Positions 26,163 to 56,019 of a stretch of DNA of 64,000 nt are shown one piece after another. Location of the stretch: contig CAVTNR010000008.1 in NCBI GenBank assembly GCA_963736115.1, positions 32,001 through 96,000 on the forward strand, in the 5' to 3' direction. Below the pieces are notes generated by a model. It was given only the letters and a program-made list of their open reading frames with translations, made no database searches and was not told the origin of the DNA. Each line of letters starts with the position of its first letter. Position 1 is the first letter of the stretch. Origin of the DNA: an uncultured bacterium. Its GTDB lineage: Bacteria > Zhuqueibacterota > QNDG01 > DTFT01. The translations under genes and the position numbers were made by a program.

Positions 26163-26723
26163 TCAGAGGGAAAGCATACGGCGTAGATGTTCCAGCGCAC
26201 GGCTGACGCGGCTTTCGACCGTCTTGACGGACACGCCCAGGACCTCCGCGATTTCAGCGTATTTCAGGCCCTGGTGCCGGTTCAGGAGGAAGGTTTCACG
26301 AATTTCGTCGGGCAGGGAATCGATCGCGGACCGGATGTCCATACGCAGGTTCGCGTCGCCTTCAGGATTGTCACGTAGATGGTGAAGCGAATCCGGATTC
26401 GCGTGTAAAACACTTTCCCTGTCCGACTTTCGGTAGAGGTCGATGATCAGGCGGTGAACGATGCGGTATAGGTAGGCCTTGACGGATTTGTCCGGATCCA
26501 GAGTCCGTCGGTTCCGCCACAGACGCGTGAAAGCGTCCTGCAGGATATCCTTCACGGATTCCGCTGAATTCGTCCTGTACCAGGCGTAACGGAACAGGGG
26601 ATCGTGATATCGGAAATAGAGAACGCGGAACGCGTCCGCGTCGGAGTTTCGTACGGCGCGGACCAGGTCGGCATCCGAGTCAGTTGAGGAGGGATTCCCC
26701 CTCCCTGGGGTCCCTGCGGGCAT
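26163..26723 (-). CDS. ECF sigma-70 factor (FecI-like)
   Basis: AFRVLY.RY, D.LQDAF.RLW, AYLYRI, LP...RETFLL.R..GLKY.EIAEVLGVSVKTVE. Confidence 0.95.
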   Translation of the reverse strand: MPAGTPGRGNPSSTDSDADLVRAVRNSDADAFRVLYFRYHDPLFRYAWYRTNSAESVKDILQDAFTRLWRNRRTLDPDKSVKAYLYRIVHRLIIDLYRKSDRESVLHANPDSLHHLRDNPEGDANLRMDIRSAIDSLPDEIRETFLLNRHQGLKYAEIAEVLGVSVKTVESRVSRALEHLRRMLSL

Positions 26724-27678: not shown

Positions 27679-29213
27679 CTAGAGGTCGTGACCGCAATAG
27701 GACAGGTTGAAGCTCTTGTTGCAGAGGGGAAAATCCGATACCGCCTGCCCACGCATGGCCATGGCCAGTCCGAACCAGTTGTGGAACGAGGGATCCACGA
27801 TCTTGTGAAAAACCACGGCGCCCCGCCGGCCGGTCATGACGACATGCGCGATCTCGCCCCGCCATCCCTCGACGAGAGACACGGCGAAGCGGCCCGCGGC
27901 CGGAGCCGCGGTTTCCACCGCGACCGGACCCTCGGGCAGGGCGTCCATCTGGCCGCGGATGAATTCGACGGATCGTTCGCATTCGATTCTGCGCACCAGG
28001 GCCCTTCCGAAGACGTCCCCGGTTTCGGAGGTCGCGACCGGGATGTGGGCGAAACCGGTATATGCCGACCGGAAAATCGGACCGCGCGTCGAGCCCCAGG
28101 CCGGAGGCCCGGGCCGCGGGCCCCACCATGCCCAGATCCGCGGCCGCGCGCCTCGAAAGGACACCCGTGTTCTCGAAGCGGCTGAGCACGGACGTGTTGC
28201 GGAACATCAGTTCCACGGCGCCGGTCAGGTCCGCGGCGATGCGATCGAGCCGGGTCAGAAAAGTCCGGATTCGGACCTCGTCCGCATCGAAACGCACGCC
28301 TCCGACTTCCACCAGGGTCCGGCCGAACCGGCTGCCGCACAGCAGGGCCGTCAGGTTGAGAAAGTCGCCGCGGATGCGGCCGCAATAGGAGGCTGTGGGA
28401 AGGAACCCGACGTCGCCCGCGAGCGCGCCGAGGTCTCCGGTGTGATTGGCCAGACGCTCGAGCTCCAGAGCGCGACGCCCCGCAGGGCGAGGCCGCGCGG
28501 CGGCGCCTGTGCGCCTGCGAGGGCCTCGTGGCAGATCGCCGCGGCCAGCGCGTGTCCGATCGTGGTGTCCCCGGCCGCGGTCTCGATCATGCGGAGCGCG
28601 GCGGATCGGGATTTCCGAGGAAGCGCGGCTTCCACGCCGCGGTGCTGATACCCCAGGCTGATCTCCAGGTGGTACACGTGCTCGCCGTGGCACTGGAAAC
28701 GGAAATGACCGGGCTCGATGACGCCCGCGTGCACGGGGCCGACCGCGACCTCGTGAATCTCTCCGCCGCCGAGGCGGTAGAAATCCATGGCGCCCCGGGC
28801 CCCGCGGCCGCGCCGGATTTCGGATCCGGCGCGGAACGGACCGGCTTCAGCCAGGGGTGGCCGGCCGGCTTGACGCCGGTCTGCTCGAAGATCTCGCGCT
28901 CGAACAGATGGGCCTGGGGGCATTCGGGCGTGAGCGAGGGGAAGGAGGCGCCGGCATCCGTCGCGAACGCGGACAGCCAGCCGGATTCGTCGAAAGCCAG
29001 AACCGCGAACAGCCTGGCGCGGACGCGGGAAGCGCTGCCGCCTGAGGATGTCTTCAGGCGGTCCGTCGGAACGCCGAAAAAAGCGCAGATGCGTCCGCCG
29101 CGGCCGATTCCGCCGATCATCGCGTTCCGGAACGCGGCCGGGCTCAGGACCGGAATGTCCTTCGCCGCGACTGCCAGCCCGTTCCGGAGCGGGAGCCCGG
29201 AAAGCGGTCTCAT
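27679..29213 (-). CDS. ehrL: Ehr large subunit (NuoC+NuoD/HycE-like) lacking NiFe ligands; several frameshifts
   Basis: AHLFEREI, VGPVHAGVIEPGHFRF, LGYQHRG, ELERLANH, EGWRGE, DPSFHNW, DFPLCNKSFNLSYCGHDL. Confidence 0.85.
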
Positions 29214-30759
29214 GGCGTCGGCCCCCCGGTCCACGCGGACCACGCGTCCGTTCCGGACGGAGCGCCTGTCACGATCGCGGCCGCGGCGGACAGGCCCTGC
29301 CTGAGGGGGCCGGGCATCCACAGGCCCAGGCCGGTGAGCAGGATCAGCATCACGGCGACGAGTATGGTTTCAACCGCCGCGGGCCGGGACGATCCGTGTT
29401 CTGAAACGGACCGCGGGCTCGCCTCCCCCCAGGCCATGCCGATGGCGTGATGCAGGGCGCCAATGAACACCACGGCGAGGCCGGACAGGAAGAGGACAAC
29501 GATCCAGGCCGGGGCCGCGGCCATGGCCGCTTTGAGAATCTGGAACTCGCTCATGAACAGCGCGAAGGGCACCGCGCCCGCGAGGCCCAGAACGGCCAGC
29601 AGGAGGCCCGATCCCCAGAGCGGCCCGCGTTTCAGGGAGCCGCCGAGCGCTTTCATCTCGTAACTGCCGGCATCCTGTCCGAGGCGGCCCGCGGAGAAGA
29701 AGGCCAGCGATTTGGCGATGGAATGGCCGAGCGTGTGGAACAGCGCGGCCGCGGCCCCGGCGCCGCCGATTCCGACTCCGAAGGCGACGACGCCCATGTG
29801 CTCGAGGCTCGAGTAGGCGAGGAAGCGCTTGACGTTTTTCTGGAACGGGATGAAGGCGGCCGCGACGCAGAATCGAGAGAAGGCCGAATCCCGCGAGCAG
29901 GTGCGCCGCCCAGCCGACGCGGCCGGTGGCGGCCTCGACGAGCGGCAGAATCCGCATCAGGCAGTACATGGCCGCGCTGAGCATGAATCCCGGAGAACAG
30001 CGCGGAAACCGGCGCCGGCGCCTGGCTGTGCGCGTCCGGCAGCCAGTTGTGCATGGGCGCGAGCCCGGCCTTGGTGCCGTAGCCGACGAGCAGAAAGAGA
30101 AAGCCCGCCTTGACCGGGCAGCGCGTCCATGGCCGAGGCGTTTTCGGACAGCTTCGTCCAGAGGAGCATCTCCATCGGCTCCAGGCCCAGGCGCTTGGCC
30201 GAGGAGGCCACCAGCAGGGTGCCCATGAACGCGAACGCCACGCCCACGGAGCAGACCATGAGATACTTCCACATGGCCTCGAGGGATTCGGGCGTCACGT
30301 GCACGCAGATCAGAAAGGCCGTGAGCAGAGTGGTGGCCTCGATGCCGACCCACATGACGCCGATGTTGTTCGAGAGCAGGACCAGGCTGAGCGCGGCGAG
30401 CGCGCCGCACCACAGGCCGCCGAATTGCCGGGCCCTGCCCCGGTCGAAGCCGTGCAGGGATTCCTCGACCTGAAATAGGACCGGCTGTAGACCGACGCGA
30501 ACAGCGCCACGGCCGACATGACGGCGAGGTGAAAGGCGGACAGGGCGTCGAGGAACAGCCATCCGGACGCGGCGAACAGCCGGCCGCCGGAGGCCGTGCC
30601 CCACACGAGGACGGCGGCGATCGCAGCATCCGCGACCGCCACGGCGAGCACCGTGCGGAAAATCCACTTTCCCGAGGGCATCAGGCGGCAGGCCAGACCC
30701 GCGGCCGCGGGAAGGAGAATCGGGAACCAGAGCAGGAGCGCGAAGGGCTGCACGTTCAT
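29210..30759 (-). CDS. hyfF: HyfF-like proton-translocating membrane subunit (frameshifted)
   Basis: [43 protein letters not shown]. Confidence 0.85.
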
Positions 30760-31406
30760 CCTTTCAGCGCGTTGAGCCGATCCGCGTCCAGGTGATCGAA
30801 CTCGCGGTTGATGTGGTACATGGCGATGCCCATGACGAACACGGCCACGAATGCGTCGAGCAGGATGCCCAGCTCCACGAGCGCCGGAATCTCGCCCACG
30901 GACGCGACGCCGAACGCGAATATCCCGTTCTCGAACACGATGTAGCCGAGCGTCTGGGTGAGCGCCTTCTTGCGGGCGGCCACCAGGAAGAGCCCGGTCA
31001 GCAAAGTCATCAGGGAGGCGGACACAATGAGCCGGCTCCCGGCTTCGGCCGCGCCGGTCAGCGGAAGCCGGCCGCCGATCCAGACCGACGCGCCGAACAG
31101 GGCGATTCCGACCAGCACCGACGGGATGGGCCCGACATAGGGCTCGATCTCGCGCTGGACGCCCGCGTCGCTCACCGCCCGGCGCAGGAGCAGGGGATAC
31201 ACCACGCCCTTGAGCAGGCCGCTCACAGCCGCGAGAATCCACACGCGGGGCGTGAGGCCGCCCCAGTTCACGGCCACGGAAAAGAGCCCCAACAGGACGC
31301 CCTGGAAGGCGACGATCCGTATGCAGGTCGACAGCAGACCGATGCCGAGCAGGGCCATGTCGGAGAGCACCAGGGCCATCAGGCCCAGTTCAATCGCTTC
31401 TTTCAC
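30756..31406 (-). CDS. hyfE: HyfE-like membrane subunit
   Basis: Q..GY..FENGI, ELGILLD, INREFD..D..RL..LKG. Confidence 0.9.
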   Translation of the reverse strand: MKEAIELGLMALVLSDMALLGIGLLSTCIRIVAFQGVLLGLFSVAVNWGGLTPRVWILAAVSGLLKGVVYPLLLRRAVSDAGVQREIEPYVGPIPSVLVGIALFGASVWIGGRLPLTGAAEAGSRLIVSASLMTLLTGLFLVAARKKALTQTLGYIVFENGIFAFGVASVGEIPALVELGILLDAFVAVFVMGIAMYHINREFDHLDADRLNALKG

Positions 31407-31409
31407 GCG

Positions 31410-32314
31410 TCACCCCAGTGAAAAGATCAGAGCCAGAGCGGACAGAGCCGCGGCCGCGGCCAGCAGCTGCGGCACCCGGACGAGCCGGAGCCGCGCGGTC
31501 ACGGATTCGACGATGCCGACGGCAACGGCCAGGACGGCCATGGCGGCCAGGCCCGCGGCCGTGTTCGCGGTCCAGGCCCAGTCCGGCCGCACCGGCAGGA
31601 ACAGGTTGACGATCAGCGAGCCCAGGCACCAGAATTTCACGGCCGCACCGGCCTGGATGAGGGCGAAGTCCGGGCCGCCGTGGTCGAGCACCATGACCTC
31701 GTGAATCATGGTCAGTTCGAGGTGGGTGTTCGGATCGTCGAACGGAATCCGCGAGTTTTCGCAGAGAAAGGCGATGAACAGGGCCACGGCCACGAGCGCG
31801 GTTTCCGGACGCTCCAGAGAGGCCGCGTTCAGAATGCCCGACAGGGAGAGCGCGCCGCTCTCGCGCGCGAGCGCGAGAAAGCCGAGCATCATCACCGGTT
31901 CGGTCAGGGCGGAGAAGAAAACTTCGCGGCTCGCGCCCATGCCCTCGAAGCTCGACCCGGTGTCGAGCGCGGCGAGCACGGTCAGGCCGCGCATGAGGCC
32001 GAACAGGCCGAGAAAGAGAATCGGGTCGCCGGGGAACGAGACCGCCGCGGGCCTGCCGCCGAAAGGCGCCAGGGTCAGAGCGGTCACCGCGGCCGCGGCC
32101 CCGATCACGGGTCCGGCGCGGAAAATCCAGGTGGTGGTCCGGGAGATAAACGGCGCCCTTGGCCAGGCCCTTGGCGATGTCGTAATAGACCTGGAGCAGG
32201 GGCTGGCCCCTGCGGCCCGCGAAGAACGCCTTGGTCCGGTTGACGATGCCCGCCAGCAGGGGGGACAGGACGAGGCCGATTGCGAATTGAATCCAGGGAA
32301 CGCCAGTTCTGCAT
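31410..32314 (-). CDS. hyfC: HyfC/HycD (NuoH-like) membrane subunit (frameshifted in 5' part)
   Basis: LAALDTGSSFEGMGASRE, ENSRIPFDDPNTHLELTMIHEVM. Confidence 0.85.
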
Positions 32315-32319
32315 GGCCG

Positions 32320-34323
32320 TCACCTCAGCATCCAGAGGAGAAGGGCCAGCAGTGTCAGCACCATGTAGGCGACGTACACCTGCAGGCGGCCTTCCTGTAT
32401 GGACCGTATCCGGGAGAACAGACGGGACACACCCGCGAGCAGGGGCCGGTACAGTCTCTCGCGGCTCATGTCCGGCGTCTCGGTTTCGAACCTGCGGCCC
32501 GCGGGAAAATAGCCCTCGGGCGGACGCACGTTCTTGCGCGTGCCGAGGAGAAAGCCGAACAGCTCGGTCGCGGGCTGGACGAACGAGGAGCCGGTGTACT
32601 GCATGCGGGCCGTGGCGGGTTCGTATCCGCAGCCCCAGGTGACGGATTTCCGGGCCGCAGGCCGGCCGCGGCGCAGGCGCAGAAGCGCGATGCCGCCGGC
32701 CGCGAGAACCAGAAAGCCGGAAACCGCCGCGATTTTCCATAGCCATTCTGAAATATCCGCTGTTTCCGTCAGAGGCACGGGGCCGAAGACCGCAGCCGCG
32801 GCCGGAATCACGGTACTGAACAGGGCGGCCCAGGCCAGGCCGCCCAGGACGCAGAATGCGGCCGGAATCGCCATGGGAACCGTCATCGAAGCCGGGGATT
32901 CAGTAGCGTCCGCGCCCGCGTCCGAGCGCGGCGAGCCGAGAAAGGAGACGCCGAAGGCTTTAATATAAACAATCAGGGAGAGCCCGAAGACGAGCGCGAG
33001 AACCGAGGCCGCGCCTGCCATGGAAACGGCCGTGGACGGGTCCGCTTCGGTCACACCCCGCCACAGTCCGGACAGCAGGAGGAATTCCCCGAAGAACCCG
33101 TTGAAAGGAGGCAGTCCGGAGGCGGCGAGGGATCCGGCGAGAAAGAACGCGGCCGTGAGCGGCATGCGGCGCGACAGGCCGCCGAGCCGATCCATCTCGC
33201 GCGTGGCCGCGGCCTTGACCGCGGATCCGGCCGCGAGAAACAGCGTTCCCTTGAATGCCGCGTGATTGACCGTGTGCACGAGCGCGGCCGCGAAACCGAG
33301 AAACGCCACGGACTGGAGGCCGGCGGCCCGGCCCACGGTCGCGACGCCGAGCGCCAGGCAGACGATGCCGACGTTCTCGATGCTGGAATAGGCGAGCAGG
33401 CGCTTGAGGTCGCGCTGGGCCAGGGCGAAGAGCACGCCGGTCAGCGCGGACACGGCGCCGACCGCGATCAGCGTCCATCCCCACCAGGCGTCCGGAACGC
33501 CGAGAAAACCGAGGGTCCGGATCAGCCCGTACAGCCCGGTCTTGATCATCACGCCGGACATCAGCGCGGAAACGTGGCTCGGCGCGGCAGGATGCGCGTC
33601 GGGCAGCCAGACGTGCAGGGGGACGAATCCCGCCTTGGCGCCGAAACCGATCAAGGCCAGGACAAAGGCGGCGGACGCGGCCGGACCCGCCAGACTGCCG
33701 CTGAACGCGGCGAAATCCGCCGTGCCCGCGGCGTTCGCGAAGGACAGGAACATCGGGATGAGAAAGGCGGTTCCGACGTGCGCGGCGACGAGATAGATGA
33801 ACGCGGCCCTGCGCACGCCTTCCTCCCGTGGTCGAAGGCGACCAGAAAGAAGGACGACAGCGCCATGGTCTCCCAGGCCAGCAGGAAGAAGAGGGCGTTG
33901 TCCGCGAGACAGACGCCGATCATGCCGCAGACCAGGGCGTTGAAGGGGAGCCAGGAGCGGCCCGCGCTGGCCGGGGTCATGGCCGCCGAGATAGTCCGGG
34001 CCGTACCAGGCGGACAATGCGCTGAGGACGACGATCGGGACGAGGAAAAACGCGGCGAGCGGATCCAGGTGAAAGGCGAAAGAACCGAACGGCATCGGCC
34101 ACGGCCAGGCCTTCCGGATCGGCGCCAGACCGGCGAGCACGCGGCAGGCCGGAATCAGCACCAGGACGGCCGCGATCACGACGCCCGCGGGACCGACGCG
34201 GCGGCCGAAGCCGCTGTCAGCGCGGAACAGCCGGGGCGCGATTCCGGAGGCCAGGAGAACGGCGAATGCGGCCAGAACGGGAATCATGCCGGTCCCCGAA
34301 ACGTCCATCCGTTCACGCGGCAT
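32320..34323 (-). CDS. hyfB: HyfB-like proton-translocating subunit (internal compensating frameshifts)
   Basis: KAGFVPLHVWLPDAHPAAPSHVSALMSGVMIK, KRLLAYSSIEN, NHAAFKG, WGCGY...TARMQYT. Confidence 0.9.
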   Translation of the reverse strand: MPRERMDVSGTGMIPVLAAFAVLLASGIAPRLFRADSGFGRRVGPAGVVIAAVLVLIPACRVLAGLAPIRKAWPWPMPFGSFAFHLDPLAAFFLVPIVVLSALSAWYGPDYLGGHDPGQRGPLLAPLQRPGLRHDRRLSRGQRPLLPAGLGDHGAVVLLSGRLRPREEGVRRAAFIYLVAAHVGTAFLIPMFLSFANAAGTADFAAFSGSLAGPAASAAFVLALIGFGAKAGFVPLHVWLPDAHPAAPSHVSALMSGVMIKTGLYGLIRTLGFLGVPDAWWGWTLIAVGAVSALTGVLFALAQRDLKRLLAYSSIENVGIVCLALGVATVGRAAGLQSVAFLGFAAALVHTVNHAAFKGTLFLAAGSAVKAAATREMDRLGGLSRRMPLTAAFFLAGSLAASGLPPFNGFFGEFLLLSGLWRGVTEADPSTAVSMAGAASVLALVFGLSLIVYIKAFGVSFLGSPRSDAGADATESPASMTVPMAIPAAFCVLGGLAWAALFSTVIPAAAAVFGPVPLTETADISEWLWKIAAVSGFLVLAAGGIALLRLRRGRPAARKSVTWGCGYEPATARMQYTGSSFVQPATELFGFLLGTRKNVRPPEGYFPAGRRFETETPDMSRERLYRPLLAGVSRLFSRIRSIQEGRLQVYVAYMVLTLLALLLWMLR

Positions 34324-38751: not shown

Positions 38752-40694
38752 TCATCTAGTCCGAACGATTTTTCGGGTCCGGACCGAACGGTCCGTTTTC
38801 AGGACGAGCAGGTACACGCCGGCCGGGAGGTCTCCGGCCGTGAACGAAACACTGCGGCCGCCTTCGGCCGCGGATCCGGAACGGAGCGTGCGGACCCTGC
38901 GACCCAGACAGTCGTACAGGATCAGCGAGACGGTGCCCGCTTCCGGGAGCGTCCAGGCGACCGATGCGGAGCCGGAACGGGATTTGGGTGGATGTCCATT
39001 CCCGGTTCCGCCGTCGATCCGGTCCCGCGGTGCGCGGACGGACGAGGCCGTGTCAGGCGCCGGCCAGGTTCTTCCCGTCCAGGTCCCAGGCTCCGTTCGG
39101 CGCGGGAGTCCCATGTGGCAGTAGCGCGATGACGGCCAGGTCCGCGGTCTTAGCGGCCTCGGATGCGTCGAAATCAAGCGTGCCGCACCGTGTCGTTCAC
39201 GGCGATCCAGGCAGCGCCGGACCCGGAGAGGGCGCCGTCCGCGGCATGCGGCCCTGAATCCCGCGCCACGGTCCCGGATCCGTCGTTCATGCGCCAGGCC
39301 GCGGCCAGGGCAGCGGAGAAGGGATGGGCGTCATCATCCGGCCCAAGTTACCTCCGGTTTCCACCGGCCGATACATCCACTCCCGCAGAACCGAATCCGG
39401 CAGGGCCGCGGACCAGACCCTCACCTCGCTGACTGTCGACGGCCGCGAAATCCGGACGGCCGGCCGCGGCGTCCTGTCCGATCGCGATTCCGGCTGTTCC
39501 GTCCACGCTTCCCACCGCGGACCAGTCCGCGGCCGCGGTGCGGATTCCGTCCTGCATCAGGACGAGGCGGCCGCCCCGGTCGAAAACCGCGGCGATGTGG
39601 TGCCAGCGTCCGTCCGCGATCACGGGCCCGGAGACATTCGTCCGGACGGAGCCGTCCGCCGCGTTCACCCGCCATTTGCCCTCGTCGATGAGGTCGATGG
39701 AGAATCCCCGGTTGCGGTCGGACGATCCGTCCTTGTTGGAAATCAGAACCGGCCGGCCCGACCACCCGTTCGTGCGCACGCAGCATTCGATCGTGAAACC
39801 GGCGTCCGCGCCGAAACGGAACGCGGGCCGGTCCGGCGCGGAGACAAAGCCGCTCCGGCCGTCCAGCCGTATCGCATATTCCGGAACTCGCAGGCTGTCC
39901 GTCTCCCAGCGGTGCGGGTTCTCCCGCGGCCGTGTGCCGCCGCCGGAGACGATGAAGAAGGTCCGCATCTCCTCGAGCGTGGACCCGCCGTGATGCGTGC
40001 CGAGCCCCCCGTGGTCCGTGAGCGCGATGACCATCCAGTCCTCATCCGCGTATCCCGGCCTGGAACGCATCGCGGCCAGCACTTCGCCGACACGGCCGTC
40101 CGCGGTTTCGATGGCGTTCCGGTAAGCCATGTTGTCCGGATCGAATCCGGACGCGTGGCCTTCGGCGTCGATGGCGCCGAGTTGGACGAAGAGAGCGGCG
40201 GGATCCCCGTGGACCAGCAGGTCCACCGCGCGGTCGACCGTTCGTTCATCGGACCAGTCCCCGGCAGAGACATCCGCGCCGTGGGGCATGGCGGTGTTCA
40301 GGTCCGGCCAGTAGACGAACCATCCGGACGAAAAATCCGGATGCGCGTCCTTCAGCCTCCGGAACAGCATGGGAAAGAGATCGAACCGGCTGTTTGAGAA
40401 GGTGTTGTCCGTGACCCCGTGTTTGCCGTTCCAGACTCCGGTGAACACGGAGGACCAGCAGGGGCCGCTTTTTGTCGGCGGCCGGGAGAGGGCCCACCAG
40501 GAGAAGGCGCTCCCTTCGGCCAGGCCGGACAGATGAGGCGTAGAGCATAACAGCAGGGCGTCGGGTCTGCACCCGTCCACGCCGAGGATGAGCAGGCGGG
40601 ACGCGGCCGCGGGCGCCGGCGACAGTGCGGCGGCAAGCAGAACGACCGCCACGCCGCGAATGCAGGCGGATCCGATTTTTCTGAACCGGTTCAT
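38752..40694 (-). CDS. Alkaline phosphatase/nucleotide pyrophosphatase superfamily + LamG + T9SS CTD (frameshifted in 3' third)
   Basis: GVDGCRPD, SGPCWSS..TG, D.EGH, TDHGG; LamG DGRWHHIA; CTD LYDCLGRRV...LPAGVYLL. Confidence 0.8.
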
Positions 40695-40700
40695 GCGTAC

Positions 40701-40729
40701 AAGATACGAACGGGACGGAACCGAATCAA
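40701..40729 (-). promoter_or_regulatory. sigma70 promoter, probably leaderless transcript
   Basis: TTGATT-N17-TATCTT ending 6 nt before ATG 40694. Confidence 0.55.
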
Positions 40730-40845
40730 GGAGGATCTGGCGAGCCGAAATGATTTTTCGCTTGTTTCGGTGCATAGAGTCACTTATTTTATACAAGTTC
40801 CGAGGGCATTCCGCGGTTCACCCAGGATGAGGCTTCCATCCGGCC

Positions 40846-41877
40846 ATGAACGGCCACGCGTACACCGACATCGACCTGTGCTCCGTCATTCCGGCCCTTT
40901 GCGAGGGGTCGGTATCGGAGCGTGACACCGCGGCTTTCGCGAGGGTCTGCGTGCGGCTTTCCATCGCGACCCTGATGTTCCTGCAGTCGAGGGGTTACCG
41001 GATCATGGATGAGGCGGGAGGCGGCCCGTCGGTTGAGGATACGGCCGCGGATGCGGTGGCGGATCTCTTCGAGCGGGACGCCGCAGGGGAATACGTCCGG
41101 TTCCGCCGTTATTTCAGCCCGCACCTTGAAAAGACCGCATCGAACGCCGAATGGCTCGTGCTGCTTCGGCGGCTGGTGACGCGGCGCGTTCAGCAGGCCC
41201 TGTCGCGCGTGTTCCGGGAACGCGATCCCGAGGGTGCCCGGATCCGCCGCGGCCTGAAAATCGCCGCGCTGAAACACGGCCGGTGGAAACTCGAAACCGC
41301 ATTCGGCAGGCAGTGGATCAGGCTCGATCACGGCATTGTCCGCCCGGGAACCGGCGGCCTTTCCCTGCTGCAGGACGGACACCTCTCCGCTTTGGCCTGC
41401 GGCCGTTTCAATCCCCGCGACACTCTGCCCGTGATCCTCGACAAGCTTTCCGATTTCCTGATCGAGCATCCTGAACTGACGGCCCGAATCGAACTGAACG
41501 ACGCGGTGCGGCTCGTGCGCGGTTACCGGAAGGGCGCGGAACGGGCCGATGTGCCGCCGCCCTCCGAATCGCCTCTGTCTCCGGACCTGATCCAGGCGAT
41601 CGAGTCCGGACGCGACAGCCTGTTCCTGAAAATCCAAAGGGATTACAGGGCCAAAGGGAAACTCGATGAGAAAGAAGCTGAGGCTTTCCGGCTGGCCCTT
41701 TCGGACATGGTGGAGGATGTGCTCGCGGGCGACCCGCTGGGGCCTTATTTCGAGTATCTCCGCGTCCGTTTAAAGGGTTTGGATGAAGAACGCTACCGGA
41801 CCCAACTCCGTACAAAATTTGAATATATGGCCAAATTGCTGAAGCGGAAAATTGAAAGAGCGGTTTCTATTTTCTGA
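40846..41877 (+). CDS. Hypothetical protein with ECF sigma region-2-like N-terminus (putative divergent sigma factor)
   Basis: AAFARVC, VEDTAADAVADLFE, WLVLLRRLV.RR echo sigma2 motifs; precedes a ZAS anti-sigma-like gene. Confidence 0.55.
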   Translation: MNGHAYTDIDLCSVIPALCEGSVSERDTAAFARVCVRLSIATLMFLQSRGYRIMDEAGGGPSVEDTAADAVADLFERDAAGEYVRFRRYFSPHLEKTASNAEWLVLLRRLVTRRVQQALSRVFRERDPEGARIRRGLKIAALKHGRWKLETAFGRQWIRLDHGIVRPGTGGLSLLQDGHLSALACGRFNPRDTLPVILDKLSDFLIEHPELTARIELNDAVRLVRGYRKGAERADVPPPSESPLSPDLIQAIESGRDSLFLKIQRDYRAKGKLDEKEAEAFRLALSDMVEDVLAGDPLGPYFEYLRVRLKGLDEERYRTQLRTKFEYMAKLLKRKIERAVSIF

Positions 41878-41994
41878 GGATTCGGGGAATGGGGGTATTA
41901 ATAAGATAGGAGTTCATAGAAAAAAATTTGTTGGAAAGCCGAATACATGGAGTTCACCCTTTAGGGTTTCATTGATAAAAGTGCCGATATAAAC

Positions 41995-42085
41995 ATGTCC
42001 GAAAGCCTCGCCTTCCCGCTTCGCGGGACCAATCGACAGATTCCCGCTATTGAAGGGCTTCGCGGGCTCGGCATTTCGGACCTAC
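41995..42085 (-). repeat. GTAGGTCCGAAAT-family palindromic element
   Basis: atgtccgaaagcctcg...ggctcggcatttcggacctac, homologous to 8446-8496. Confidence 0.75.
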
Positions 42086-42108
42086 AAGTACTCAATTGTT
42101 ATAATTCA

Positions 42109-42198
42109 GAATCCGGAACCTGGAACCCAGAACCTGGAACCCAGAACCCGAACGATCTCGACCATGAACTATGAACCATGAACTATGAACTATGAACT
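42109..42198 (+). repeat. Two adjacent heptamer tracts (GAACCTG/GAACCCA)n and (TATGAAC)n
   Basis: ggaacctggaacccagaacctggaacccagaacc then ccatgaactatgaaccatgaactatgaactatgaac. Confidence 0.85.
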
Positions 42199-43067
42199 TG
42201 CAGGAAATGTTAAACTGCCCAGATAAAAACCGTATCGAGCTCTTCCTGCTCGGCGGCGTGACCGACGCTGCCGAGGCCGCACGGATTCGCTCGCACCTTT
42301 CCGCGTGCCCGGCCTGCAGGCTGGCCGCGGAAGAGGCCGAAGCCTTTCACCGGGTGGCCGGATCCATTCCCTCCGAACAGATCGACCGGATGGTCCGCCG
42401 GGTGCTGTCCGGAGCCGCGGTCGGGCCGGCCGTCGCAGGACGCGTTCTCGAGCTCAAACCGATGGCCCTGCCGGGGCATTCTCCACGCCGCACGCTCCTC
42501 GCCGCGGATCACGGCCCGACTGGCCGTTTCGAGCCGGTACAGACCTATGCCAATGTCGAGGCTGACCTCGTCGCCAGGCTCCTCAGGGACAATGCGTCCC
42601 GGGAACTGTCGCTCTATCTGGTCGAATCCGGGGGAGAGCCGGCCGCGAACCGCGTTCTCGAGATCGAGGGCCAGGAGGAACAATACGCCGCGGACGAGAC
42701 CGGCCGCGTGGAGCTTCAGGGTTTGTCCGAAGATGAACTGAAGGGGCGGACCCTCCGCATCCGCTCCTCCATCGCGTTTTTCGATCTGGCGCCGGTGCAG
42801 GATCTCCGCGAGCGCATCCGTTTTGAAGGTCATTACGCGCTGCGGAACGCGGAATTCGACGAAATCCGCATTGAGACCGAGGAGGCGGAGGGCCGCACAC
42901 TCACGCGCATCCGGATTGAAAAGATACGCGGAGCCGGGGCGACGGCTGTCGTGGGCGTGAGTGTTTCGAGGCGCGGCGACTCTCCGCTGACCTCGCCCGT
43001 GGTGCGGGGCGCGGCTGTGTTCGAAGAGCTGGACCCGGAGCGGATCCTGAAGATCCGGATTTACTGA
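42192..43067 (+). CDS. Soluble zinc-finger (zf-HC2/ZAS) anti-sigma-like protein
   Basis: NCPD...F..G......IRSHLSACPAC (HxxxCxxC); no TM; beta-rich C-terminal domains; alternative start 42207. Confidence 0.75.
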   Translation: MNLQEMLNCPDKNRIELFLLGGVTDAAEAARIRSHLSACPACRLAAEEAEAFHRVAGSIPSEQIDRMVRRVLSGAAVGPAVAGRVLELKPMALPGHSPRRTLLAADHGPTGRFEPVQTYANVEADLVARLLRDNASRELSLYLVESGGEPAANRVLEIEGQEEQYAADETGRVELQGLSEDELKGRTLRIRSSIAFFDLAPVQDLRERIRFEGHYALRNAEFDEIRIETEEAEGRTLTRIRIEKIRGAGATAVVGVSVSRRGDSPLTSPVVRGAAVFEELDPERILKIRIY

Positions 43068-43120
43068 ACGGTTCCGGCCGACCGGCATCCGGAACCGGGG
43101 CCCGGGGAAACCATGAACGC

Positions 43121-45427
43121 ATGAAAACCATCGAACTCGAACAGGCGCGCTGCCGCCTGGCGGAACGCCTGGCCGGACCCGCTTCCGGCCATGAAAAACT
43201 GACGTTCATCGTCCGCTTTTTCAGGGCCGCCTCCCCGCAATTCAGCGTGGACGCCCTCCGATCGTACCATCTGGAGTTCTCCTCCCCCTTTTTGAAAACA
43301 GCTTCGGCCGCGGCGCTCGCCAACCGGCCTCCCGGATTTCTGCTGAACACGCTCGAATTGGTCCGCGTGTACCGCGAGCGGTTCGCGGACGACACCGCGG
43401 CCGACGATCTCGATCGCGCGGAGCGCGCCTGCCGGCTGGCTTTGCTGGAGACAGCCGTCGTGCTCGGCGAATGGGGGCCGGCCCGCGAATCGCTCGAAGC
43501 CCTGTCCGGCGAACGCCTGCCTGCGGAACCCGCGGACACGGAGGGTTCAGCGTCGCATTATCCCCTTGAAGCCTGCGGGAAACTGGCCGCGAGTCTGATC
43601 GGGCCCTGTCCCGCTGCGGCCGGCATTGTGCAATCCGTCGCGGACCGCTGGTCTTCGGAATTCGGGGGACAGACCGGGGACCGGCTGTGGCTTCTGTTCG
43701 CGCAGAAGGCGGATGAGAACGGGCCGGCGCATTCGGAGCCGGACTGCGGCTTCCTGATCGCGGCCGGACTCCGGACACGGGTCCGGCTCCACCCCGACGC
43801 AGCGGACGATACGATACGGCTGAACAACGACTGGGTGTCCCGATCGGAGCCGTTCCACAGGCTCATCCGGGACGCTTTGACCTCCATGCGGCCCATACTG
43901 GCGAAAACCGGGTATGCGGCGCCTTCGGATCAGCACGGCCACTTTCTGTTCGCCCTGTCCGAAAGGGAGGCGGCGTTTTACGGCAGGTCCCTGGAAGCGC
44001 CCCTGGCCCTTCTGGCCGCGGGCGGGCTGGTGAACGGTTACTACGGCCGGCCGCTCGTCCTGTTCCCAAATAGTACGGCCGTGACCGGCGGCGTGGACGG
44101 AGAAGGCCGCATTCTGCCCGTGGACAAGGACGGGTTGAAGGCCAAGCTTCATGCGGCTTTTTTCTCGCCCCTCAGACGCGTCGTGGTGCCGTGGCCGAAT
44201 CTCCAGGAAGCCGTTTCCGTCATCGAGAAGCTCCGGATTTCCCATCCGAACCGCAGACTCGATCTGCAGAGCGCGGATACGCTCGAAGCGCTCTGGAACG
44301 ACCGCAATGTCGCTGAGGCCGGACGAGTCACGACAGCGGTCAGGCTGACCGCGGGCCTGAGGCGGAACCGGAATCGGATCGCCTGGTCCGCGGCCTGGGC
44401 CGGCATTCTGCTCACCAGCGCCCTTCTGCTTCTGCCCCTGCTATGGCGGGACAGGAATCCCGCCTCGATCGACGTTTCCGGATCGGTGCTCGTGGCGAGG
44501 AGCGCGGGAGGCCGGGAATTATGGAAGTACGATTTCGGTGTCCCGCTGACGCGAAACCGTTATGCGGATCCTTCTCTCCGGGTTCGCGTTACGGATGCGG
44601 ACGGCGACGGCAGGCGGGAGGTGCTGTTCGGAGTCTATGAATCGACCGATCTGGGCGCGCTGAATGGATCGATTTTCCTTTTCAGCGCGGATGGGGATGT
44701 CCGTCTCCGCCTGAAAACGGGGCGGGCCATGAAATTCGGCGGTGCGCTCTACGAGGACCATTACCGCGTGGCGTTCGCGGACGCGGTCGATCTGGACGGG
44801 GACGGAGTGAAGGAGATTGTGTCGATTTCCTTCCATTATCCCGATTATCCCTGCTGCGTGAACGTCTGGAGCCTGTCCGGGGAGAAGCTGGGCGAGTACT
44901 GGCATTCCGGACAGCTGGAAAAGGCTGAGTACATTGACGCGGACGGGGACGGGGTCCGGGAACTGTTCCTGGCCGGTCAGAACAATGAATACCGCTGTGC
45001 CGTACTGGCCGTTCTCAAACCGCCCCGTCTGACCGGGGCCTCGCCCCAGACCCCGGCCGGCCATTACCGGGCGGAAGGGCTCGAAACAGGCGGGGAGATG
45101 CAGTATGTCCGTTTTCCGAAGAGCGTCCTAAGTGAACTGGCCTTGAACCGGGACACGGCTCTACATGCGGAGGAAAACAACGGACGAATCCGCGTGGGTC
45201 TGGCGAATCCGGCCGCATCGGCCGGCGGCACGCAATCTCATTTTATCTATTACGTTTTCGATCCGCGGTTCCGCCTTCTCGACGTGGACGTCGGGGACTG
45301 TTATTTCAGCAGGGTGTTTGAACTCAGGGGAAGGCCCCTGACCGATTCGGAACTGTCCAGGCCCGTCCTCCGTTTTGACGGGAAAGGATGGTCGCAAATT
45401 GAACAGGTTCGGGCCGGGTTGGAATAA
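43121..45427 (+). CDS. Membrane protein: cytoplasmic Lon (S16)-like protease domain + TM + FG-GAP/VCBS beta-propeller
   Basis: GRSL..PLAL, AVTG.V...G.ILPV...GLKAK..AA, VVVP..N align with Lon C-domain; TM after RRNRNR; three D.DGDG..E repeats. Confidence 0.75.
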   Translation: MKTIELEQARCRLAERLAGPASGHEKLTFIVRFFRAASPQFSVDALRSYHLEFSSPFLKTASAAALANRPPGFLLNTLELVRVYRERFADDTAADDLDRAERACRLALLETAVVLGEWGPARESLEALSGERLPAEPADTEGSASHYPLEACGKLAASLIGPCPAAAGIVQSVADRWSSEFGGQTGDRLWLLFAQKADENGPAHSEPDCGFLIAAGLRTRVRLHPDAADDTIRLNNDWVSRSEPFHRLIRDALTSMRPILAKTGYAAPSDQHGHFLFALSEREAAFYGRSLEAPLALLAAGGLVNGYYGRPLVLFPNSTAVTGGVDGEGRILPVDKDGLKAKLHAAFFSPLRRVVVPWPNLQEAVSVIEKLRISHPNRRLDLQSADTLEALWNDRNVAEAGRVTTAVRLTAGLRRNRNRIAWSAAWAGILLTSALLLLPLLWRDRNPASIDVSGSVLVARSAGGRELWKYDFGVPLTRNRYADPSLRVRVTDADGDGRREVLFGVYESTDLGALNGSIFLFSADGDVRLRLKTGRAMKFGGALYEDHYRVAFADAVDLDGDGVKEIVSISFHYPDYPCCVNVWSLSGEKLGEYWHSGQLEKAEYIDADGDGVRELFLAGQNNEYRCAVLAVLKPPRLTGASPQTPAGHYRAEGLETGGEMQYVRFPKSVLSELALNRDTALHAEENNGRIRVGLANPAASAGGTQSHFIYYVFDPRFRLLDVDVGDCYFSRVFELRGRPLTDSELSRPVLRFDGKGWSQIEQVRAGLE

Positions 45428-45459
45428 CCGGTTCCCATCCGGACTGCGGCACGGACCCG

Positions 45460-45482
45460 GGGCCCTTGAGGGCCTTTTTTTA
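45460..45482 (+). terminator. Intrinsic terminator closing the three-gene module
   Basis: ggccc-ttga-gggcc + T6. Confidence 0.65.
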
Positions 45483-45733
45483 TTGGATTTTCTGCGGCAA
45501 GCCGGGATGTTGCTATGTAAAGGTATCGGCGGGAGCAATCATACGGTCAATCAGGTTGACAAAGCCGAATGTCCATTTACCGGAATTTGAATTTTCACCC
45601 CCCCGGGCCCCCTCCCTTGCACCAGGGAGGGGGCGGGCCGGGGGATGCGGAATCGAAAAGCAGATCCGGCCATCCGGCCAGGAAAGGGGACAGGGAGCCG
45701 GCTGAGCCGGTCGGAGGCCGCCCCGGATCCCGG

Positions 45734-46024
45734 ATGATGCATTTCGAGATGGAACTGCCGGGTGTGCTCAACTGGAAATTCAGCACACTCGATGAGGCCG
45801 TGAGCCGGACCCTTCGGCTGATGATCCGGTCGGTGCCGGTCGCGAGGATTTACAACCTGAATGAGGACGGTGAAAGGGAGGGAATTTCCCTGTGGCTGGA
45901 AAAATGCGGTGTCGCGTGCCCGTCCTGCCTCGAGGATGAAGCCGTGGTCTTGATGTCCGGCATACCGGAGCAGTACGATGAACTGGCGGTGTGCCGGAAA
46001 TGCCAGTGCTCGTTTAAATTATAG
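45734..46024 (+). CDS. Small hypothetical zinc-ribbon protein
   Basis: CPSC...CRKC; followed by a terminator. Confidence 0.55.
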   Translation: MMHFEMELPGVLNWKFSTLDEAVSRTLRLMIRSVPVARIYNLNEDGEREGISLWLEKCGVACPSCLEDEAVVLMSGIPEQYDELAVCRKCQCSFKL

Positions 46025-46061
46025 GATCCGTGTAACCTGCCAAGCCTCCTTGTCCTCTGTC

Positions 46062-46094
46062 AAAGGCGGGTTCCTTCGGGGACCCGCCTTTTTT
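46062..46094. terminator. Intrinsic terminator
   Basis: aaaggcgggttcc-ttcg-gggacccgcctttttt. Confidence 0.8.
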
Positions 46095-46212
46095 ATGATC
46101 GCAATCGGAATCACTGATCGCCCGGGATTTTTATCCCGGGCATAGTCGAAAGAAAAAACTCCCGCGGGTTTTTCATGCCCGCGGGAGTTTTTCGCGATAA
46201 CGCAAAAAGGGG

Positions 46213-53168: not shown

Positions 53169-53624
53169 ATGTCCCAGGCCAAATCGTCCAAAAGCCGGGG
53201 ATTGGACCTGCTCGGCCCTATCGAGGAGGAGCTGGACTTCTTCTTTTCGCGGTTTTTCGGCTCTCCGTATCCCACCATTTACCGCAAGGAACTTTCCTGG
53301 CGGCCGCTTACGGATTTCTACGAAACGGATCTGGAATACGTGCTCCTGATGGAGCTGGCCCAGGTCAAGCCGGAGGACGTTTCCATCCAGCTTCAGGAGG
53401 GGATTCTGGCCGTGCGCGGAATGCGCAAAACATCGCCCCCGCGCGAAAGAAGACGATACCACAAGATGGAAATCAATTACGGCCCCTTCGAGCAGAAAGT
53501 GGCGGTTCCGGAGCCGGTCGACATGGATAAACTGTCCGCCTCATACCATGACGGATTTCTCGAAATCCGCATACCCAAAAAACGGCCGGACACCGGTCCG
53601 CGCATCGACATACAGGTGGAATAG
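53169..53624 (+). CDS. Hsp20/alpha-crystallin small heat-shock protein
   Basis: W.P.TD.YET, E..YG.F, A.Y.DG.LEI..PK. Confidence 0.93.
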   Translation: MSQAKSSKSRGLDLLGPIEEELDFFFSRFFGSPYPTIYRKELSWRPLTDFYETDLEYVLLMELAQVKPEDVSIQLQEGILAVRGMRKTSPPRERRRYHKMEINYGPFEQKVAVPEPVDMDKLSASYHDGFLEIRIPKKRPDTGPRIDIQVE

Positions 53625-53631
53625 AAAACCG

Positions 53632-56019
53632 ATGAACGATCCGAATCCAGGCATTCCCCATCATCCGGGCGAGTTCGGGGAAATGCCCGAAATCCCGCAG
53701 GAACTCCCCATTCTCCCGATGACCAATGTTCTCGTTTTTCCCTACGTGGTCGCGCCCCTCGTCATCTCGGACGAGCGCCGCATCGCCGTGGTCAACGAGG
53801 CGTTGTCCGACCGCAAGATGGTCGGCCTGTTCGCCGTCCGGACGAAGACGGACGGCGACGCCGAACCGGACAGCCTGAAATTGTACGACGTCGGCACCGC
53901 GGTGTTCATCCTGAAAATGTTCCGTTATCCGGACGGCACCATGGGGCTCATGGTGCAGGGCCTCTCGCGCATCCGGCTGGAGAGCATCACCAAGGCGGAG
54001 CCCTTTCTCAAGGGCCGGATCCGGCCCATCCCCGAGGCCGCCGCGGATACGGTCAAGATCAAGGCCCTGACGCGCGAGGTCACCGAAATTTTCCAGCAGA
54101 TCGTCTCCCTGTCCGCCTTTCTGCCTGACGAGCTCGGCCAGGCGATCACCAACGTGGACAACCCGGGCCGCCTGGCGGACCTGGTCGTTTCGAACCTCAA
54201 GCTGGACATCGCTGAACGCCAGGCCATACTCGAAACCCTGGCCGTGGAAAACCGCCTGATCCGCCTGCTGACCCTGCTCAACCGCGAGCTGGAGCTCCTG
54301 AAGCTCGGGAACAAGATCCAGTCCGAGGTTAAAAACAAGATCGAGGACAGTCAGAAGGAATACTACCTCCGCGAGCAGATGAAGGCGATCCAGAAGGAGC
54401 TCGGGGACAAGGACGAGCGGACCGCCGAGATCGAGGAGCTGAAGAGCCGCATCGAAAAGGCCGCGATGCCCAAAGAGGCGCGCGAGGCGGCGGAGAAGGA
54501 GCTGGACCGGCTCTCCAAGATGCCGCCCCAGGCCGCGGAGTACACCGTCTCTCGCACCTATCTCGACTGGCTGATCACCCTGCCCTGGAGCGCCGGCACC
54601 GAGGACAACATAGACATCGTCAAGGCCAAGGCCATCCTCGATGACGACCATTACGATCTGACGGACGTGAAGGACCGCATCCTCGAGTTTCTCTCCGTGC
54701 GCAAGCTGAAGAGCACGTCCAAGGGACCCATCCTCTGCTTCGTCGGCCCGCCGGGCGTGGGCAAGACGTCGCTCGGGCGGTCCATCGCAGCGGCCATGGG
54801 GCGCAAATTCGTCCGCTACTCTCTCGGCGGCATGCACGACGAGGCGGAGATCCGGGGTCACCGGAGAACCTACATCGGGTCCCTGCCGGGCCGGATCGTT
54901 CAGGGCGTCCGCAAGGCGGGTTCGAACAACCCCGTTTTCATGCTCGACGAGATCGACAAGGTCGGCACCGACTTCCGGGGCGACCCCGCCTCGGCCCTGC
55001 TCGAGGTGCTCGACCCGGAGCAGAACAACACGTTCTCGGACCACTATCTCGAAGTGCCCTTCGACCTGTCGAAGGTGATGTTCATTACCACGGCGAACGT
55101 GCTCGACACCATCCCGCGGCCCCTGCTGGACCGCATGGAAGTGCTGCGCCTGCCGGGTTACATTCTCGACGAGAAGATCCAGATCGCGAAGAAATACCTC
55201 ATCCCCCGCCAGATCGAGGAGAACGGGCTGAAGCGGGGCCAGATCCGATTCGACGACGCAGCGGTGCGGCGCATCATCGAGCACTACACGCGCGAGGCCG
55301 GCCTCCGCAACCTCGAGCGCGAGATCGGCACCTGCTGCCGCAAAGTGGCCCGTCTCGTCGCGGAGGGGAAGGAGAAGCGCGTCCGGATCACGCCGGAGAA
55401 GGCGGCCGAATTCCTCGGCCCGCGCAAGTTCTTCTCCGAGGCCGCCCAGCGCACGGACGAGGTCGGCGTGGCCACGGGTCTGGCCTGGACGGCAGTCGGG
55501 GGCGAGATCCTCTTCGTCGAGGCCACGGCCATGACCGGCGGAAAAGGCCTGGTGCTCACCGGACAGCTCGGTGACGTGATGAAGGAGTCCGCCCAGGCCG
55601 CGCTGTCGTACATCCGGTCGAACACCGCCCGGTACGGCATTCCGGACGACTTTTTCGCGGCCCGGGACATCCACATCCACATTCCAGAAGGCGCCACGCC
55701 CAAGGACGGGCCGTCCGCGGGCGTCACGCTGGCCACGGCGCTGGTGTCCCTGCTGGTGAACAAGCCGGTGAAGCACGACGTGGCCATGACGGGCGAGATC
55801 ACGCTCCGCGGGAAGGTGCTGGCCGTGGGCGGCATCAAGGAAAAGGTGCTCGCGGCCCAGCGGTCCGGCATTACCCATGTGATCCTGCCGAAGCTCAATG
55901 AAAAGGACCTTGTGGAGATACCGGAGCACATCCGGAAGCGAATGACGTTTCATTTCGCGGAGTGGCTGGACGACGTGCTGGCGTTGACCCTTGTGGATAA
56001 AAAGAAGAAAAAGAAATAG
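53632..56019 (+). CDS. lon: ATP-dependent protease La
   Basis: LON N-domain, GPPGVGKTS Walker A, LDEIDK, PKDGPSAG and GGIKEK catalytic dyad. Confidence 0.98.
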   Translation: MNDPNPGIPHHPGEFGEMPEIPQELPILPMTNVLVFPYVVAPLVISDERRIAVVNEALSDRKMVGLFAVRTKTDGDAEPDSLKLYDVGTAVFILKMFRYPDGTMGLMVQGLSRIRLESITKAEPFLKGRIRPIPEAAADTVKIKALTREVTEIFQQIVSLSAFLPDELGQAITNVDNPGRLADLVVSNLKLDIAERQAILETLAVENRLIRLLTLLNRELELLKLGNKIQSEVKNKIEDSQKEYYLREQMKAIQKELGDKDERTAEIEELKSRIEKAAMPKEAREAAEKELDRLSKMPPQAAEYTVSRTYLDWLITLPWSAGTEDNIDIVKAKAILDDDHYDLTDVKDRILEFLSVRKLKSTSKGPILCFVGPPGVGKTSLGRSIAAAMGRKFVRYSLGGMHDEAEIRGHRRTYIGSLPGRIVQGVRKAGSNNPVFMLDEIDKVGTDFRGDPASALLEVLDPEQNNTFSDHYLEVPFDLSKVMFITTANVLDTIPRPLLDRMEVLRLPGYILDEKIQIAKKYLIPRQIEENGLKRGQIRFDDAAVRRIIEHYTREAGLRNLEREIGTCCRKVARLVAEGKEKRVRITPEKAAEFLGPRKFFSEAAQRTDEVGVATGLAWTAVGGEILFVEATAMTGGKGLVLTGQLGDVMKESAQAALSYIRSNTARYGIPDDFFAARDIHIHIPEGATPKDGPSAGVTLATALVSLLVNKPVKHDVAMTGEITLRGKVLAVGGIKEKVLAAQRSGITHVILPKLNEKDLVEIPEHIRKRMTFHFAEWLDDVLALTLVDKKKKKK

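Follow-up and report, generated by a model that had tools for sequence, protein, structure and literature searches.

How might a signal from outside the cell reach a sigma-like factor when the anti-sigma-like protein encoded beside it is soluble and the membrane protein of the same locus carries a Lon-like domain? This question is raised by three consecutive genes, g1, g2, and g3 (the names are used for the proteins as well), in a 64,000-nt stretch of DNA from an uncultured bacterium of the phylum Zhuqueibacterota (contig CAVTNR010000008.1 of assembly GCA_963736115.1). The whole stretch is hereafter called the window, and coordinates are positions within it. Listing of the open reading frames (ORFs) placed the three genes one after another on the + strand, as a preliminary description of this DNA had stated. 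We suggest, with a probability of roughly 0.55, that they form a self-contained transmembrane proteolytic signaling module in which g3 cuts g2 to free g1. The genes lie as follows.

40846..41877, + strand: g1, ORF of 343 amino acids (aa), sigma-like protein
42192..43067, + strand: g2, ORF of 291 aa, soluble zinc-binding anti-sigma (ZAS)-like protein
43121..45427, + strand: g3, ORF of 768 aa, predicted single-pass membrane receptor-protease

The third gene, g3, is predicted to encode the following parts.

43121..43663, + strand: N-terminal helical domain, residues 1-181 (AlphaFold2 [AF2] model)
43664..44335, + strand: Lon (S16) fold without AAA+, residues ~182-405 (model, profile, and conservation)
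43988-43990, 44084-44086, and 44144-44146, + strand: putative catalytic codons S290, T322, and K342 (alignment conservation)
44378..44446, + strand: single transmembrane (TM) helix, residues ~420-442 (hydropathy scan), with RRNRNR just before it
44459..45424, + strand: FG-GAP beta-propeller, residues ~447-768, proposed sensor (Pfam and PDB profile)

The window also encodes a true LonA (53548-56019; Lon_C E value, 1.8e-91) with AAA and substrate-binding domains, and the preliminary description had claimed that g3 matches this Lon motif by motif, apparently retains its Ser-Lys dyad, and lacks the AAA ATPase. BLASTP aligned the two proteins over 125 residues at 26% identity (E value, 2e-4), pairing AVTG with AMTG, GLKAK with GIKEK, and VVVP with VILP; in g3 the motifs start at residues 288 (GRSL), 320 (AVTG), 338 (GLKAK), and 352 (RRVVVP). 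The K342 motif thereby fell on GIKEK; K722 of Escherichia coli Lon corresponds to the second Lys of KEK. From Ser to Lys, the distance in sequence is 52 residues in g3 (S290-K342) versus 43 in the window's LonA (S723-K766), as the preliminary description had given it. Neither a Pfam AAA match nor a Walker A motif (G-x4-G-K-[ST]) was found in g3, whereas the window's LonA has a Walker A at residue 400; the Lon N-terminal substrate-binding domain was also absent from the Pfam results for g3. All three claims were thus borne out.

The Lon-like region of g3 belongs to a large family. A word-indexed search with g3 gave merely nine relatives, whereas an exhaustive HMMER search with residues 1-419 returned at least 551 cluster representatives at an E value of ≤1e-3 and 138 at ≤1e-10 (clusters at 50% identity). 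Many among the 150 relatives listed are ~750-800 aa long. Alignment of 62 full-length relatives showed no variation at S290, G329, or K342 and hardly any at T322, and S290 and K342 were conserved in at least 90% of a 149-sequence alignment; Pfam matched Lon_C in 13 of the 62 (E value, ≤0.01) and FG-GAP_3 in 28. For g3 itself, weak library matches were obtained to NCBIfam LonB (E value, 0.0017) and PADLOC CARF_LON (E value, 0.009). When the family profile was compared with the PDB, Archaeoglobus fulgidus Lon (E value, 2e-7), Methanocaldococcus jannaschii Lon (4e-6), E. coli Lon (1e-3), and the Lon-like TTC1975 (1.4e-3) were found.

Structure modeling agreed with these results. The AF2 model of g3 residues 1-419, built from 149 sequences, had a predicted local distance difference test score (pLDDT) of 93.8 and a predicted template modeling score (pTM) of 0.92, and showed a helical region (1-181) followed by an alpha/beta domain. 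Foldseek matched the model to Lon proteolytic domains (E value, ~1e-8; TMt up to 0.82, 6x27_G), so that the search of the N-terminal half of g3 against Lon that the preliminary description had recommended turned out positive in both structure and profile. VIA-align superimposed 176-190 residues on LonA, LonB, and LONP1 domains with Z scores of 19-21 and root-mean-square deviations (rmsd) of 2.2-2.7 Å, including Bacillus subtilis LonBA (8dvh_B; Z score, 20.3; 2.2 Å over 176 residues) and E. coli Lon (1rr9; Z score, 19.1). Other Lon-fold proteins followed, namely MtaLonC (17.5), BrxL (17.2), and RadA and ComM (16-18). As judged from the model, g3 therefore carries a complete Lon proteolytic fold and no ATPase. 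Its N-terminal helical domain found generic alpha-solenoids alone (VIA-align Z score, ≤8.4); it contains a conserved S-Y-x-x-E motif near residue 48, of which Y49 is nearly invariant in the 62 relatives. Two short relatives, P0040 (453 aa) and P0045 (449 aa), stop soon after the protease domain and have no propeller, and the N-terminal helical domain of P0040 has a CARD match below threshold (E value, 1.7e-4; 21.9 bits versus a cut-off of 23.9).

The hydropathy scan detected one hydrophobic segment in g3 (~420-442), after the RRNRNR stretch at residue 414, and no N-terminal signal peptide was found. Five Lys or Arg residues occur in the 15 residues before the TM helix versus two after it, and, because of the positive-inside rule, the protease is predicted to be cytoplasmic and the propeller external, the orientation that had been proposed from the first inspection. 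Three D-x-D-G-D-G-x-x-E repeats start at residues 492, 557, and 606, Pfam FG-GAP_3 matched at 27.6 bits (cut-off, 26.9), and the propeller profile found the propeller of the rhamnogalacturonan lyase YesW (PL11) in the PDB with an E value of 3.3e-10, mainly through the Ca-binding-type repeats. In the g3 relative P0151, a lectin-like Laminin_G_3 domain stands in place of the propeller. Given the PL11 propeller likeness and the Laminin_G_3 domain, a carbohydrate or envelope ligand would fit, and our guess is that g3 senses a component of this kind.

The features of g2 are consistent with a soluble partner of a sigma-like factor, and two short elements in it matter for the argument.

42294..42317, + strand: ZAS motif of the zinc-binding type, H35-x3-C39-x2-C42 (invariant in 21 of 21 sequences of alignment A6)
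42498..42506, + strand: L103-A104-A105, proposed cleavage site and C-degron (conservation and CalpT analogy)

Pfam zf-HC2 matched g2 with an E value of 1.1e-5 and 25.9 bits, above the 22.2-bit cut-off, and the hydropathy scan found no hydrophobic segment, in agreement with the earlier view of g2 as a TM-less HxxxCxxC anti-sigma-like protein. The 21-sequence g2 profile matched RsiW (E value, 0.0099), Mycobacterium tuberculosis 3hug_B (0.012), and ChrR (0.22) in the PDB. The N-terminal zf-HC2 domain is followed by a variable, gap-rich linker ending in LAA and by a C-terminal domain, which ends in K-I-x-I-Y in most of the 21 sequences. From its sequence, g2 is thus a soluble HxxxCxxC (ZAS) anti-sigma-like protein. 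ZAS domains are known sigma binders.

We then asked whether the three genes stay together in other genomes, as the preliminary description had suggested should be surveyed. Of the 167 genomes of the window's phylum, 32 had a g3 relative at an E value of ≤1e-10, and these represent 22 of the 100 genera covered (this tally takes in one unpublished genome, G158, which was used in no other result). Twenty g3 loci were surveyed by searching their ORFs with hidden Markov models from the g1, g2, and g3 alignments. The g1-g2-g3 order and strand were the same in all 17 loci with at least 2.3 kb of upstream DNA, which belong to several families of the phylum and mostly have short spacers. A g2 gene was present in 19 of the 19 loci with any upstream DNA, the remaining locus ending at the g3 start. 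No neighboring gene beyond the triad was conserved outside one genus in the surveyed loci. A contig scan with a narrower g3 alignment gave 14 loci.

The linker of g2 provided a further connection to the protease. All 21 Lon-coupled g2 proteins aligned carry L103-A104-A105, and six of seven g2 proteins from metagenome triads have the motif at the same place. Conversely, none of 10 medium-sized ZAS relatives without a g3 partner had it at the corresponding alignment position; only one of them contains LAA anywhere in its sequence, and the same 10 proteins are also without the last ~90 residues of g2, the C-terminal extension. A study on the CalpL-CalpT-CalpS system (10.1101/2024.05.08.593097) reports that CalpT is cleaved by CalpL within 202-LAAA, after A204 and before A205, that the new LAA end is a degron required for CalpS release, and that A204D in CalpT blocks this release; its authors liken the LAA end to the VAA end that cleavage leaves on RseA. 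The host genome of the window has clpX (600 bits) and clpP adjacent to each other, as well as a transfer-messenger RNA gene outside the window (G000:C8:164513-164872, complement) that specifies the tag GNNYSYAMAA. A cut after A105 would leave an end of ...TLLAA, which resembles the host's own tagging signal.

Whether g1 is a sigma factor was examined by fold and by gene position. The protein consists of a helical sigma-2-like domain (~5-126), a middle helix/beta-hairpin region, and a C-terminal four-helix bundle, with a conserved F-R-x-R-D-P-E-G-A-K/R motif at ~123-132. Its AF2 model, built from 10 sequences, had a pLDDT of 77 and a pTM of 0.44. Over residues ~5-126, VIA-align matched the model to domain 2 of ten sigma chains with Z scores of 5.2-7.0, among them ShbA, BldN (rmsd, 2.7 Å over 78 residues), sigma-32, SigI6, SigB, SigC, Rhodobacter sphaeroides SigE, WhiG, and CnrH. 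In the Atlas, g1 fell into unnamed clusters of 253, 113, and 58 members with weak leads to Sigma70_r2 and r4 clusters (scores, 0.85 and 0.84).

The position of g1 was assessed in a metagenome scan with the g1 alignment, which gave 80 loci, 12 of them stopping right after g1. A ZAS-type gene lay directly 3′ of g1 in 64 of the 68 loci with at least 600 bp downstream. These 64 comprised five full triads, two more with a full g2 before the contig end, 10 (and one probable) with one fused ZAS-TM-propeller gene of 472-495 aa, 32 in which the ZAS gene is shorter, encodes a soluble protein, and is not accompanied by g3, and 14 that were too short to classify. In the fused proteins, HxxxCxxC at residues 29-45 and one TM helix at ~102-121 precede a g3-like C-terminal part, which matches the g3 model from just before the TM helix to the end with E values of 1e-30 to 1e-54; FG-GAP matches were obtained for those of loci L133 and L139. 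This fused form next to g1 reads as the classical membrane anti-sigma layout with the same sensor as g3, so g1 would hold the sigma position of sigma/membrane-anti-sigma pairs. In the triad, the covalent link between ZAS domain and sensor appears to have given way to a soluble ZAS protein and a sensor that carries a protease. Among the fused genes are those at loci L127, L132, L133, L136, L139, L140, L142, L147, and L150, and three of the nine proteins that they encode have LAA within the membrane helix (residues 122-138), where it is not conserved.

Other partners of the g1 family were seen at the soluble-ZAS loci, as described from the examples examined among the 32. At the small-ZAS loci (L096:6763-10429, L103:6954-10537, and ~30 others), two REC-DUF4388 proteins of ~600-950 and ~400 aa follow, together with a ~160-aa protein without a Pfam family; this set is a second, apparently undescribed input module for the g1 family. 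At L073:6899-8137 and L110:7204-8433, the third gene encodes a third kind of partner, a ~410-aa HEAT-repeat protein with an N-terminal hydrophobic segment.

We propose that these parts would work together as follows. In the resting state, g1 would be held by the ZAS domain at the N terminus of g2, and the C-terminal domain of g2 would dock on the cytoplasmic part of g3, for which the N-terminal helical domain is a possible site. A signal at the external propeller, probably through a change in oligomeric state, would turn on the protease, which would cut the g2 linker directly behind its invariant Leu-Ala-Ala. The LAA end exposed in this way would then serve as a degron for ClpXP-type proteases, and their removal of the ZAS fragment would free g1 to bind RNA polymerase and change transcription. 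Lon domains work as oligomers. CalpL activation is attributed to cyclic tetra-adenylate (cA4)-induced filament formation or oligomerization (10.1101/2024.05.08.593097; PMC11417357), and it is these two points that suggest oligomerization as a possible trigger of g3. The proposal as a whole is strengthened by two findings that go beyond the preliminary description, the fused ZAS-TM-propeller partner of g1 relatives and the protease-linked LAA.

Several observations weigh against this reading, beginning with the protease and its substrate. The match of Pfam Lon_C to g3 (E value, 0.046; 13.7 bits) lies under the 21.1-bit cut-off, the Ser-Lys spacing exceeds that of Lon by nine residues, both a strict HxxxCxxC and LAA are missing from one divergent triad (L134), and cleavage of g2 after LAA is suggested by analogy only. 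The Lon-like domain of g3 might accordingly not cut g2 at all, and instead be a pseudo-protease scaffold, process g3 itself, or serve membrane protein quality control, leaving g1 and g2 under redox or zinc control through the ZAS domain. The different spacing would suit this explanation, as would the existence of Lon-fold domains without protease activity, RadA and ComM being among the matches of g3, and some ZAS proteins, such as RsrA, are redox sensors. However, Ser, Lys, and Thr vary little or not at all over 62-149 diverged relatives, which a scaffold would not need, and the strict gene linkage together with the protease-specific LAA and C-terminal extension of g2 is hard to explain without a g2-g3 relationship. 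We therefore regard this alternative as very improbable.

As to g1, the Z scores of 5-7 are under the level that the aligner's notes call safe for helical proteins, and residues 241-343 matched generic helical bundles alone (Z score, ≤7.8), with no sigma-4 chain among the matches listed. Foldseek with the g1 model gave nothing at an E value of ≤1e-3, sigma-70 chains being scattered at ~1. No family was found for g1 in Pfam, NCBIfam, or PADLOC, and Pfam recognized none in 10 g1 members; when 80 members were scanned at an E value of ≤1, the 25 families listed out of 76 included no sigma family. The PF04542 scan of the genome found eight sigma genes, g1 not among them; PDB profile searches with g1 returned no sigma factor, and hhalign of g1 against the genome's own sigma factors (five ECF [extracytoplasmic function]-type, eight in total) gave a probability of 0.3. 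The hhalign result is weak negative evidence, because the template alignments are small. In addition, no ECF-type motif shared by the 18 regions upstream of g1 was seen on inspection by eye, made without a formal motif search, and housekeeping-type TTGnnn/TATATT boxes precede g1 at many loci, so there is no sign of autoregulation. With regard to the claim that g1 has sigma region-2-like motifs, there is thus a tentative fold likeness, whereas every sequence method was negative; likewise, the recommended comparison with sigma domains 2 and 4 gave a tentative likeness to the former by fold and none to the latter among the matches listed. The assignment of g1, sigma-like by modeled fold and by position only, is the weakest link.

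In an alternative explanation, the same proteolytic switch would act on an effector other than a sigma factor, which g2 would keep inactive until g3 cuts; g1 could, for instance, arrest growth or regulate by binding DNA as a member of another class. Every sequence test for sigma-70 regions being negative is what this explanation would predict, and at 343 aa g1 is far longer than the genome's ECF-type sigmas (189-218 aa); the middle helix/beta-hairpin region and the generic matches of the C-terminal part also fit it. Against it stand the ten sigma domain-2 chains matched at ~5-126, the sigma binding for which ZAS domains are known, the sigma-gene position of g1 beside membrane ZAS anti-sigma genes, and the Atlas leads, and we consider a non-sigma g1 unlikely.

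The proposed module is closest in its logic to CalpL-CalpT-CalpS. Both combine a Ser protease that has the Lon fold but no AAA module with an anti-sigma-like substrate and a sigma-like factor (10.1101/2024.05.08.593097; PMC11417357), and both substrates have a linker with LAA, which in CalpT is the reported cut site and degron. Unlike CalpL, whose sensor is a cytoplasmic cA4-binding SAVED domain, g3 has a TM helix and an external FG-GAP propeller, and Pfam found no SAVED domain in it, giving FG-GAP_3 and the weak Lon_C match alone. The g3 protease has the full Lon_C fold and is nearer to canonical Lon (Z score, ~20) than to CalpL (7qda_A; Z score, 11.1; rmsd, 2.6 Å over 138 aligned residues); the CalpL structure was not among the best 50 Foldseek-derived matches realigned and came up in the wide VIA-align search. 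This distant kinship indicates that the triad is an analogue of the CalpL system, not a member of it.

The likeness also raises the question of whether the triad is a conflict or defense system, in which the propeller would detect phage attack or envelope damage and the freed g1 would lead to growth arrest or a protective program, as proposed for CalpL-CalpT-CalpS. The patchy distribution, the lack of flank conservation beyond one genus, and the weak CARF_LON match are compatible with such a role, and CalpS is reported to arrest growth in E. coli (10.1101/2024.05.08.593097). However, CARF_LON was the only PADLOC match in the triad, and no defense or CRISPR genes lie beside it in the window: the flanks within ~5 kb on each side encode CotH, a LamG-containing phosphodiesterase, and a sugar ABC transporter, in contrast to the CRISPR context of CalpL, the rest of the genome not having been searched for cas10. 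Moreover, g1 relatives pair with ordinary signaling inputs, namely membrane anti-sigmas and REC-DUF4388 proteins. A defense function therefore seems rather improbable to us.

Signaling by g3, g2, and g1 would also resemble regulated intramembrane proteolysis (RIP) of membrane anti-sigmas (RseA/DegS/RseP/ClpXP, RsiW, FecR, and RsgI), in which an extracytoplasmic signal likewise frees a sigma factor by anti-sigma proteolysis. The final step is alike in its C-terminal xAA degron, which is VAA in RseA (10.1101/2024.05.08.593097), and some g1 relatives are accompanied by a classical ZAS-TM-sensor anti-sigma bearing the same propeller. In contrast to RIP, the anti-sigma-like protein of the triad is soluble and the membrane protein itself carries the protease; a single cut in the cytoplasm would take the place of cleavage at site 1 and site 2, and no site-2-protease- or DegS-type protease is encoded in the triad. 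The triad as proposed thus works like CalpL-CalpT-CalpS, ends like RIP cascades, and is a member of neither.

Three further comparisons were made. Canonical Lon (LonA and LonB) and the Lon-like LonC share with g3 the proteolytic fold, the Ser-Lys dyad, and the Thr, whereas g3 lacks AAA+ and the Lon N-terminal domain, has the longer Ser-Lys spacing, and is fused to a TM helix and an external propeller. YlbL/DdcP of B. subtilis reportedly has an ATPase-less Lon_C domain on a single-pass membrane protein and removes a specific regulatory protein; its PDZ and Lon domains are said to face outward and its substrate to be a membrane checkpoint protein, whereas the g3 protease is predicted to face the cytoplasm and is tied to a sigma/anti-sigma-like pair. 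TPR-CHAT (Craspase)/Csx30/CASP-sigma of type III-E CRISPR likewise joins a protease with an anti-sigma-like protein and a sigma factor (10.1101/2024.05.08.593097), and its protease differs in being caspase-like, RNA-guided, and cytoplasmic, with no membrane sensor. Full-text literature searches found no description of the triad architecture, although supplementary tables may list such neighborhoods, and the paper reclassifying the ECF sigmas (PMC7826278) does not mention Lon, FG-GAP, propeller, or protease in its main text. The earlier remark that this architecture was not known as a described system hence stands, and the triad probably represents a new input and topology among protease/anti-sigma/sigma modules, as well as a new sigma-like family.

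Two noncoding features complete the locus.

41878..42191, + strand: g1-g2 spacer, 314 bp, with tandem heptads
45459..45483, + strand: terminator-like GC-rich hairpin (45459-45476) and T-run at the operon end (hairpin scan)

The hairpin is located where the preliminary description had placed a terminator closing the three genes. The scan found seven terminator-like sites in the region versus 6.6 expected by chance, and because the count equals chance expectation, the hairpin is given weight for its position alone. An Rfam scan of 40300-46200 gave nothing above the gathering score; at 46032-46196, downstream of a strong hairpin (46062-46091), His_leader (30.5 bits; gathering score, 49) and ncr1175 (29.5 bits; gathering score, 60) matched below it, probably by chance. 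The g1-g2 spacer is 314 bp here versus ~30-100 bp in more distant genomes, and it is also long in a genome of the same genus. It contains the heptad arrays CAGAACC (6.9 copies, 42107-42153) and ATGAACT (five copies, 42164-42198), the latter extending into the g2 start codon. GGAAC/GTAAC-type heptads occur 5′ of g2 in the same-genus genome, and the short spacers of distant genomes are without heptads; GGAAC resembles the -35 element of ECF promoters. Farther away, an ordinary ECF-type sigma gene lies ~14 kb upstream of the triad (26418-26621, - strand; G000:C8:58418-58621; 192-aa open frame; Sigma70_r2 E value, 8.3e-17) and is one of the eight sigma genes of the genome. The G+C content at ~28000-34000 is 0.68-0.70, with an AT skew of +0.17 to +0.29; both values are clearly higher than in the rest of the window, where the G+C content is 0.53-0.66.

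Beyond this locus, the triad may be the founding example of a widespread and undescribed group of one-component transmembrane receptor-proteases, in which a sensor runs an AAA-less Lon domain that cuts a ZAS protein at LAA to act on an unrecognized sigma-like family, one also wired to membrane anti-sigmas and REC-DUF4388 proteins; we hold this broader view tentatively, at slightly short of even odds. If true, partner switching and multi-protease RIP would be joined by a third way of passing a signal through the membrane to a sigma-type factor, one in which the receptor itself is the protease and a single cytoplasmic cut suffices. The CalpL logic of Lon-type cut, LAA degron, and sigma release would then be a general signaling design rather than a CRISPR speciality. 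A large sigma-like family would have been missed by the sigma-70 models, and the regulons of this family in several little-known phyla could then be investigated. With a predicted and directly testable cleavage site, the compact three-gene module would also be attractive as an engineerable device leading from sensor to transcription.

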